DNA of 64,000 bases, from NCBI RefSeq assembly GCF_041886205.1, contig NZ_CP169029.1; one strand, given 5' to 3'. This stretch comes from Escherichia coli (GTDB lineage: Bacteria; Pseudomonadota; Gammaproteobacteria; Enterobacterales; Enterobacteriaceae). This document shows, piece by piece, positions 6,001-9,000 of this stretch. The number at the start of each line of letters is the position of its first letter. Position 1 is the first letter of the stretch. A program made the position numbers.

Positions 6001-9000
6001 TGCTGGGCGAACGCTGCAAGACGCTGAAAGAGATGGCACAGAGCTGCCGTTATTTCTACGAAGATTTTGCTGAGTTCGATGCCGACGCCGCGAAAAAACA
6101 TCTGCGTCCGGTAGCGCGTCAGCCGCTGGAAGTAGTTCGTGACAAACTGGCCGCGATTACTGACTGGACCGCTGAAAACGTTCATCACGCTATTCAGGCG
6201 ACGGCGGATGAGCTGGAAGTGGGTATGGGTAAAGTTGGTATGCCGCTGCGTGTCGCCGTAACCGGTGCGGGGCAGTCTCCGGCACTGGATGTTACCGTTC
6301 ACGCAATTGGTAGGACCCGCAGTATCGAGCGTATCAACAAAGCGCTGGCTTTTATTGCTGAACGCGAAAATCAGCAGTAATTAGCGCATAAAAGATAAAC
6401 GGCAGGAGATAATATCCTGCCGTTTTTTATTTATGCTGATTCGTCAATATCGAGACGGGCGAGGAAATTGCGAATTCCTTCACGTGACAAAAATTGCGCG
6501 ACTTTTTCCTGCTCAATGTCTGTCATATTATCTATCGCGTTGATGATTTGTCGATACGCCGGGGCGCGTGCTCCAGGAGCGTATTCAGCAATTCTCTCTT
6601 CAGCTTCCATCAACATCGGTGTGTTATGGAAGGCTGGCGTGTTCTGAATAAACTCGCAAACTTGCGTATCGACCAGAATAAGTCTGGCACGACCGCCTTT
6701 CACGCCGGGAAATTTTTCCGTTTTCCAGCCTTTTTCTCTGATCCAACGGTTAACAGTTTGTTTAGCCACACCGAGGCATTCAGCCAGTTCTTCGGTGGTC
6801 ATTTTATTGCGTAATCTTTTCATATTATTTGCTATCGCGAATCCCTAAGCGTTGTAACAATCCGATAATCCCTTCCCGCAGAAGCAAGGATGTAAACTGT
6901 TTTTGTTCAACTGGCGTCATCTCTTTCGCCAGTGTCACCAGCAATACTTCAAGCGGCGCATCACCAGAAAGGGCAGGCGCTTCTCCCTGACCTTCTGGAC
7001 GTTCAGCATTACGAATATATTCACGAACCTGTTCATTGACGTGAACCAGTCGGGCTTTGCCACCCTGGACGCCTGGTTTTGGTGACGTCGTCCAGCCTTC
7101 CTTGCGTACCCATTTATTAATGGTCTGGCGGCTATAGCCGGTCAGTCTGGCAAGTTCATCTGGCGTCATCCTCTCCTTGAACATAACAATTCCCTGAATG
7201 TATGTGGGTCTATTAGTAGTTCATTTTATAACACCACTTTACAGGAAACCGTGACATGAATAACTACTGAATGCGAGCGGTTTTCCAAAATTGTTCATTT
7301 GCCTGATTTTTCAGCGATTGAAACTACACGCTGCAATTTGCCGTTGACACATTCGGGCGGAATTCATATGATGCCGCCCGTCAACTCGACAAGCTTTACG
7401 TGACGGGGCTATAGCTCAGCTGGGAGAGCGCTTGCATGGCATGCAAGAGGTCAGCGGTTCGATCCCGCTTAGCTCCACCAAATTTCCAACCCTCGCTGCA
7501 AAGCGGGGGTTTTTTGTCTCTGCTTTTTGCCGCTTTTGTAATACAGTCTACGTCCGGGTTAGCGCCGCCTGGTGAAAGCATCATTGGATGAAAAATCGGC
7601 AACAGGCTGGCCCCTGTTTGCTTCGCGATGCGAATAAACTTATTATTTGTGTGCCTGAAAACCCCGATCAGTGAGAGTAGTGTACTCATGTTTGTGGAGC
7701 ATAACCTGATAAAAAATATCAAGATATTCACACTAGCGTTTACGCTCACCGTGGTACTTATTCAGCTATCCCGTTTTATTTCGCCACTTGCCATTATCCA
7801 TTCCAGTTATATCTTTCTGGCGTGGATGCCACTGTGCGTAATGCTGTCAATCTTGTTTATCTTTGGCTGGCGCGGTGTCGTTCCCGTTTTATGCGGGATG
7901 TTTTGCACCAATCTGTGGAACTTTCATCTCTCTTTTTTACAGACTGCGGTCATGCTCGGTAGCCAGACGTTTGTCGTGTTGTGTGCCTGCGCAATATTAC
8001 GCTGGCAGCTGGGGACGCGTTGGCGTTATGGATTGACCAGCCGATATGTCTGGCAACGTCTGTTCTGGCTTGGTTTGGTGACGCCGATCGGCATCAAATG
8101 CAGCATGTATCTTGTGGGGAGCTTCTTTGATTTCCCGCTAAAGATATCCACCTTTTTCGGCGATGCGGATGCCATTTTCACGGTTGTTGATTTACTAAGC
8201 CTTTTCACCGCTGTGCTGATTTACAACATGCTTTTCTACTATCTCACTCGCATGATTGTAAGTCCCCACTTTGCGCAGATATTGTGGCGCAGGGATATCG
8301 CGCCGTCGTTGGGCAAAGAGAAACGCGCATTTACCTTAAGCTGGCTGGCAGCGTTAAGCGTGCTGCTACTTCTGTTGTGCACACCTTATGAAAACGACTT
8401 TATTGCCGGTTACCTGGTACCCGTTTTCTTCATCATCTTTACCCTCGGGGTCGGTAAGCTTCGCTATCCGTTTTTAAATCTCACCTGGGCTGTTTCAACG
8501 CTTTGCCTTCTGAATTACAACCAGAACTTTTTGCAAGGGGTGGAAACCGAATATTCGCTGGCATTTATTCTCGCGGTGCTGATTTCCTTTAGCGTTTGCC
8601 TGCTCTATATGGTGCGCATTTATCATCGCAGTGAATGGCTTAATCGCCGCTGGCATTTGCAGGCGCTGACAGATCCGTTAACGCTCCTACCCAACTTTCG
8701 TGCGTTGGAACAAGCGCCGGAGCAAGAGGCGGGCAAGAGTTTTTGCTGCCTGCGCATTGATAATCTTGAGTTTATGAGTCGTCATTACGGCTTAATGATG
8801 CGCGTTCACTGTATCCGCTCAATTTGCCGTACGCTGCTGCCGTTGATGCAGGAAAACGAAAAGTTATATCAATTGCCTGGTAGTGAACTGCTGTTAGTGC
8901 TGAGCGGGCCGGAAACGGAAGGGCGACTCCAGCATATGGTTAACATCCTGAATAGTCGGCAAATTCACTGGAACAATACCGGGCTGGATATGGGCTATGG

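Follow-up and report, generated by a model that had tools for sequence, protein, structure and literature searches.

The tRNA-Ala gene and its surroundings

We analyzed a stretch of 64,000 nt of Escherichia coli contig NZ_CP169029.1 (assembly GCF_041886205.1), hereafter the window, in which a gene for tRNA-Ala(GGC) is found between yfeC and pdeA; this is the alaW-alaX locus of E. coli (alaWX). The features at and around the locus, in window coordinates, are:

4309-4706, minus strand: tRNA genes lysV-valY-valX-valU (tRNA calls and annotation of the homologous region)
4965-6380, plus strand: gltX (ORF list and annotation of the homologous region)
6431-6823, minus strand: yfeD (ORF list and annotation of the homologous region)
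6825-7184, minus strand: yfeC, the divergent upstream neighbour (ORF list; annotation in 6EVA, 14EC033 and K-12)
7344-7372, plus strand: sigma-70 promoter-like site, TTGACA-17 nt-TATGAT (pattern scan, 11/12 matches)
7373-7404, plus strand: discriminator and 5′ leader of ~25 nt (bounded by the promoter-like site and the tRNA 5′ end)
7405-7480, plus strand: tRNA-Ala(GGC), one gene, 76 nt (ARAGORN)
7405-7485, plus strand: 81-nt repeat stretch, the tRNA plus AATTT (alignment with the K-12 lineage)
7488-7517, plus strand: intrinsic-terminator-like hairpin (7488-7511) and T-run (terminator scan)
7688-9877, plus strand: pdeA (yfeA), the downstream neighbour (ORF end at 9877; start mapped from the annotated 2190-nt pdeA of relatives)

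The initial annotation placed one 76-nt tRNA-Ala copy followed by a terminator at 7405-7520, and this reading held: ARAGORN called one gene, and the hairpin and T-run at 7488-7517 lie inside that interval. The gene has the anticodon ggc at position 34, encodes the CCA end, and scored 63 bits against Rfam RF00005 (gathering score 29) over the full model (positions 1-71 of 71). The isolated tRNA had z = -0.81 on MFE folding, which is uninformative, as is usual for tRNAs, so we used the covariance-model result instead. In the acceptor stem, which forms 7 bp in the fold, GGGGCUA faces UAGCUCC (positions 66-72), placing G3 opposite U70. A G3:U70 pair in the acceptor stem is the major AlaRS identity element, and, as read from the sequence, the window tRNA-Ala carries it. 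ARAGORN found six tRNA genes in total in the window, and no second tRNA-Ala(GGC) copy was found in the whole 64 kb with the 76-nt query at up to 3 mismatches (chance expectation 0).

The gene is 100% identical to both alaW and alaX of K-12 over the 76 aligned nucleotides. It shares with the alaW/alaX type the cloverleaf, the GGC anticodon, G3:U70, identity to K-12, and position, and lacks only the organization as a tandem pair. The missing tandem partner is a variant feature and leaves the identity of the tRNA gene unaffected.

Both flanks of the gene are those expected at the outer edges of the K-12 pair. The window flank 5′ of the tRNA is identical to the K-12 flank before the first tRNA, and the near-consensus promoter-like site at 7344-7372 would correspond to the promoter upstream of K-12 alaW. 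A G+C-rich stretch (GCCGCCC, 7373-7379) directly follows this site, and the 5′ leader is presumably removed by RNase P, as general tRNA biology suggests. The flank 3′ of the tRNA is identical to the K-12 flank after the second tRNA. Its terminator-like stem has 10 pairs, 6 of them G-C, with a loop of 4, and is followed by TTTTGTCTCT; the G+C-rich hairpin with a T-run immediately after it, by which a Rho-independent terminator is recognized, is present at 7488-7517. This terminator-like element would be the counterpart of the terminator, of intrinsic (Rho-independent) type, downstream of K-12 alaX.

Copy number of alaWX in K-12 and among E. coli genomes

In MG1655, alaW (b2397) and alaX (b2396), both tRNA-Ala(GGC), lie between yfeC and pdeA with their starts 115 bp apart, and the same pair is found in W3110 and in another O16:H48 strain. 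The initial annotation gave a tandem alaX-alaW for K-12; the pair is there, but the order of transcription is the reverse, with alaW promoter-proximal and alaX second. A MinION enrichment paper that lists alaW alone for W3110 hinted at a single copy in the K-12 reference; this was rejected, the W3110 record having two tRNA-Ala genes.

Alignment of the window with the K-12-lineage locus returned one clean 115-bp gap, with all other columns, in the tRNA and in the flanks, identical. The gap is exactly one repeat unit, i.e., the 76-nt tRNA plus a 39-nt spacer. The window and the K-12 operon therefore share the 76-nt tRNA, both flanks and the synteny lysV-valYXU, gltX, yfeD, yfeC, tRNA, pdeA, but the window has one gene where K-12 has two, without one tRNA and the 39-nt alaW-alaX spacer (115 bp). 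The K-12 copies agree at every base of the tRNA and of the 5 nt after it (AATTT), which makes them 81-nt perfect direct repeats, and the deletion junction would lie somewhere within 7405-7485, with no finer placement possible. Recombination or slippage between identical tRNA repeats would be expected to yield just such an exact one-unit difference with identical flanks. The proposal of a copy-number difference arising by recombination between the repeats is thus supported, K-12 carrying the pair and the alignment a single 115-bp gap.

We surveyed copy number in 5,426 complete E. coli genomes, 5,425 of which had any match. Plain BLAST cannot separate one-copy from two-copy loci, in that overlapping pieces merge into one place with 100% coverage; the copy classes were told apart by short junction queries with strict E-value cut-offs, which uninterrupted matches alone pass. 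Of the 5,425 genomes, 5,293 covered the alaW-spacer-alaX junction query. An uninterrupted 141-nt flank-tRNA-flank query matched 132 genomes (2.4%), where the annotation shows one tRNA-Ala in every case, and this count equals the number left without the junction (5,425 - 5,293 = 132). The spacer-tRNA-spacer query, a full match to which needs at least three copies, was matched in 48 genomes (0.9%); the remaining genomes, ~97% of E. coli, have two copies. Single-copy examples are EDL933, MC1061, BL21(RP), KO11FL, Xuzhou21, and UMNF18. The single tRNA-Ala gene was verified in EDL933 and in MC1061, and three tRNA-Ala genes at 115-bp spacing were verified in M8.

The 5,425 genomes contain 10,777 full-length copies of the window tRNA-Ala(GGC) (median 2), close to the number expected if all copies were at alaWX (132 + 2 × 5,245 + 3 × 48 = 10,766). 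The agreement indicates that the locus holds essentially all, or almost all, tRNA-Ala(GGC) genes of the species, so that a one-copy locus implies a one-gene genome; the window strain probably has only one tRNA-Ala(GGC) gene. Four full-length copies are plasmid-borne, and in at least one genome the tRNA is present at six places.

Single-copy alleles are found in several lineages alongside two-copy relatives. In O157:H7, the copy is single in three EDL933 assemblies, ATCC 43894, strain 277, Xuzhou21, and others, and Sakai has alaX and alaW. In the K-12 background, MC1061 and OV2 have one copy and MG1655 and W3110 two; in the B background, BL21(RP) has one, and BL21(DE3) and REL606 have two (a match with ~115 bp of extra span). 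The W derivative KO11FL has a single copy. About half of the 132 single-copy genomes have 95-99% identity to the window in the 141-nt flank query, so these come from more distant backgrounds. The presence of single copies both in lineages with two-copy relatives and in distant backgrounds indicates that the loss happened many times. A comparable array is glyV-glyX-glyY, reported with three or four identical copies (PMC4539685): it too consists of identical head-to-tail tRNA genes in strain-variable number, but of another tRNA at another locus.

The window allele is like other single-copy alleles in that its 141-nt flank-tRNA-flank segment is uninterrupted and 100% identical in at least 60 genomes among the matches listed. 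It is unlike them in strain background, and none of them matches the window at 100.0% over 601 bp or over 25 kb; the window allele is therefore either an independent occurrence or one from a strain not sampled in the survey. As a copy-number allele, the single-copy alaWX is ordinary and already known from public genomes. Within the literature library searched, no published description of copy-number variation at alaW/alaX was found. As a marker, the 115-bp tandem unit offers a small natural copy-number polymorphism (one copy in 2.4% and at least three in 0.9% of complete genomes), and the tRNA gene count of any one E. coli assembly should not be taken to equal that of K-12.

Origin of the single copy

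Over about 52 kb, the window and its nearest relative, 6EVA, share 99.97-99.99% identity and are separated by a few SNPs and a single small indel besides the one at alaWX, where 6EVA carries two tRNA-Ala copies. Another close relative, wlxctx60, matches in two pieces with two tRNA-Ala genes. Across species, a representative genome of each was scanned for the exact 76-nt tRNA sequence. E. albertii showed a pair whose period is likewise 115 bp, and, among the matches listed, tandem pairs are also found in Citrobacter, Enterobacter, Klebsiella, Superficieibacter, Photorhabdus, Xenorhabdus, and Dickeya. The same scan suggested a single copy in E. cloacae, Pseudescherichia vulneris, Pantoea, Mixta, and Rosenbergiella, but here the exact match misled: ARAGORN found a tandem GGC pair in these genomes, the second copy being slightly divergent (by a base) at the syntenic site. 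With two copies in 6EVA, in E. albertii and in other Enterobacterales, the tandem pair is ancestral and the single copy of the window a recent, derived loss.

We consider it likely, with good confidence, that the alaW-alaX operon was cut to one gene by the exact loss of one 115-bp unit, probably through slippage or unequal recombination, and very recently. Between 81-nt perfect direct repeats, replication slippage with template switching, or unequal recombination between sister strands, would drop one 115-bp unit and leave a gene with the promoter and leader of alaW on its 5′ side and the trailer and terminator of alaX on its 3′ side. Loss of one unit and the reciprocal gain recur throughout E. 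coli. The observations are those of a unit contraction: the gap equals one period and is bounded by perfect direct repeats, and both reciprocal expansion and recurrence in independent lineages are seen. Slippage or unequal exchange is suggested by the precise one-period loss, the reciprocal triplications and the recurrence.

Tandem 101-bp direct repeats are known to delete in recA-deleted E. coli, which was attributed to template switching (PMC7145654). Those tetA repeat assays resemble the window in repeat length (81 nt perfect with a 115-bp period in the window) and in the precise loss of one unit, but they used plasmid reporters under selection, whereas the event in the window would be chromosomal and natural, with its pathway read from the product. 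A RecA-independent and a RecA-dependent pathway leave no sequence trace by which to tell them apart. The anatomy, the exact one-unit difference, the loss from an ancestral pair and its recurrence in the population are shown by the data; we infer the route of the deletion, undisturbed expression of the surviving gene and an effect on fitness that is small or nil.

The strongest competitor to a deletion is an artefact, in which the strain has two real copies and the assembler or the polishing step merged the 115-bp tandem repeat (81-nt perfect core) into one. Assemblies are known to collapse short tandem repeats whose cores are perfect, both nearest relatives have two copies, and same-project assemblies of closely related laboratory strains show one, two or at least three copies. 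Against this, the window assembly runs straight through an IS5-family element and differs from 6EVA over about 52 kb by few SNPs and a single further small indel; the read-through and the near absence of indels point to an assembly of high quality, finished or backed by long reads, that easily spans a 115-bp unit. Furthermore, several separate assemblies of EDL933 and of strains derived from it agree on a single copy, so genuine single-copy alleles exist. Collapse is accordingly improbable in our judgment, and the window strain probably carries a genuine deletion. Copy-number calls at short perfect repeats nevertheless need confirmation by reads before they are interpreted.

Counts in laboratory strains are discordant: BL21(RP) has one copy, Rosetta2(-DE3), BL21-RIPL, BL21(DE3) CP081489, and XL10-Gold have at least three, and the reference BL21(DE3) and K-12 have two. 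Either alaWX is very unstable, with variation from stock to stock, or some of these database calls are artefacts. The discordant assemblies of commercial strains have nearby accession numbers, possibly from one sequencing project.

Gene dosage, selection and other features of the window

Given intact promoter-like and terminator-like signals, the remaining gene should still be expressed, and transcription, processing and charging of its tRNA-Ala would be normal, with the gene dosage about halved. For the tRNA-Ala that reads GCC and GCU, the strain probably has one gene, not two, and supply of this tRNA may be slightly lower. Many codons of the four-codon family boxes have two or three isoacceptors that read them redundantly, and tRNA-Ala1 (UGC) and related tRNAs carry xo5U-type wobble modifications that permit pairing with pyrimidine-ending codons (PMC6599085). 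That the EDL933 group has inherited one copy stably speaks against a strong cost. The single copy of the window is of very little significance.

An adaptive account would treat alaWX as a fast-switching dosage locus whose alleles are sorted by the supply of GCC/GCU-decoding tRNA, with the single copy of the window adaptive; we regard this as very unlikely. If it were true, units might be gained and lost so often that laboratory stocks of one strain come to differ. The proposal that selection on tRNA-Ala(GGC) supply tunes copy number, the one-copy allele having been selected in the window lineage and not being a neutral product of slippage, we rate slightly lower still. It draws on the coexistence and recurrence of one-, two- and at-least-three-copy alleles, on the stable inheritance of the single-copy allele in the EDL933 group, and on experiments in E. 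coli on the costs and benefits of tRNA gene redundancy, as reported in an eLife paper (PMC9981150), a term search of which returned no mention of Ala/GGC or alaW/alaX. On the other side, two copies are by far the commonest state and are conserved across Enterobacterales, the other alleles are few and dispersed, the pattern expected of recurrent nearly neutral or slightly deleterious mutations, and an informal look at the genome lists showed no association with host, pathotype or genome size. That the single copy is instead ancestral, with a duplicate gained by K-12 and most E. coli, is effectively refuted already: ~97% of E. coli and the near-identical 6EVA have two copies, E. albertii has the pair with a 115-bp period and distant Enterobacterales a tandem pair at the syntenic locus, and the single-copy genomes are scattered among lineages with two-copy sister strains.

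The exact 76-nt tRNA-Ala(GGC) is, among the matches listed, common to Alpha-, Beta- and Gammaproteobacteria, which is striking for a whole tRNA; the taxa with the identical sequence among those matches include Rhizobium, Bartonella, Ensifer, Cupriavidus, Polynucleobacter, Pseudomonas capsici, and Idiomarina.

Elsewhere in the window, a FlxA-like ORF of 113 aa (3848-4189, minus strand) lies between yfeR and lysV (tRNA-Lys, 4309-4384), as it does in 6EVA and 14EC033; K-12 has xapR and the annotated RtT sRNA adjoining lysV in place of this ORF. The segment beside the valUXY-lysV array is strain-variable. E. albertii NBRC 107761 (4701-4976) has two tRNA-Val(UAC) genes before tRNA-Lys, compared with three in the window and in K-12, and the tRNA-Val tandem array beside lysV appears to vary in copy number in a manner similar to alaWX.

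Relative to 6EVA, the window has an insertion of ~1,057 bp at 41558-42614, with a 9-bp overlap at the junctions and a gene for an IS5-family transposase (NF033579, 357 bits). The insertion interrupts emrK, leaving an N-terminal fragment of 252 aa and a C-terminal fragment of 143 aa (flanking ORFs 40830-41588 and 42628-43059), and the window strain has therefore probably lost the function of the EmrKY efflux adaptor. Collinearity with 6EVA stops at ~51.8 kb, and the later match is just a short IS-like piece (51830-52650). The 6EVA counterpart of ~51836-64000 holds an island with Ag43, YeeS/T/U-type genes and IS fragments. Within this non-collinear part of the window lies a further tRNA gene:

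61737-61811, minus strand: tRNA-Arg(CCT) (ARAGORN)
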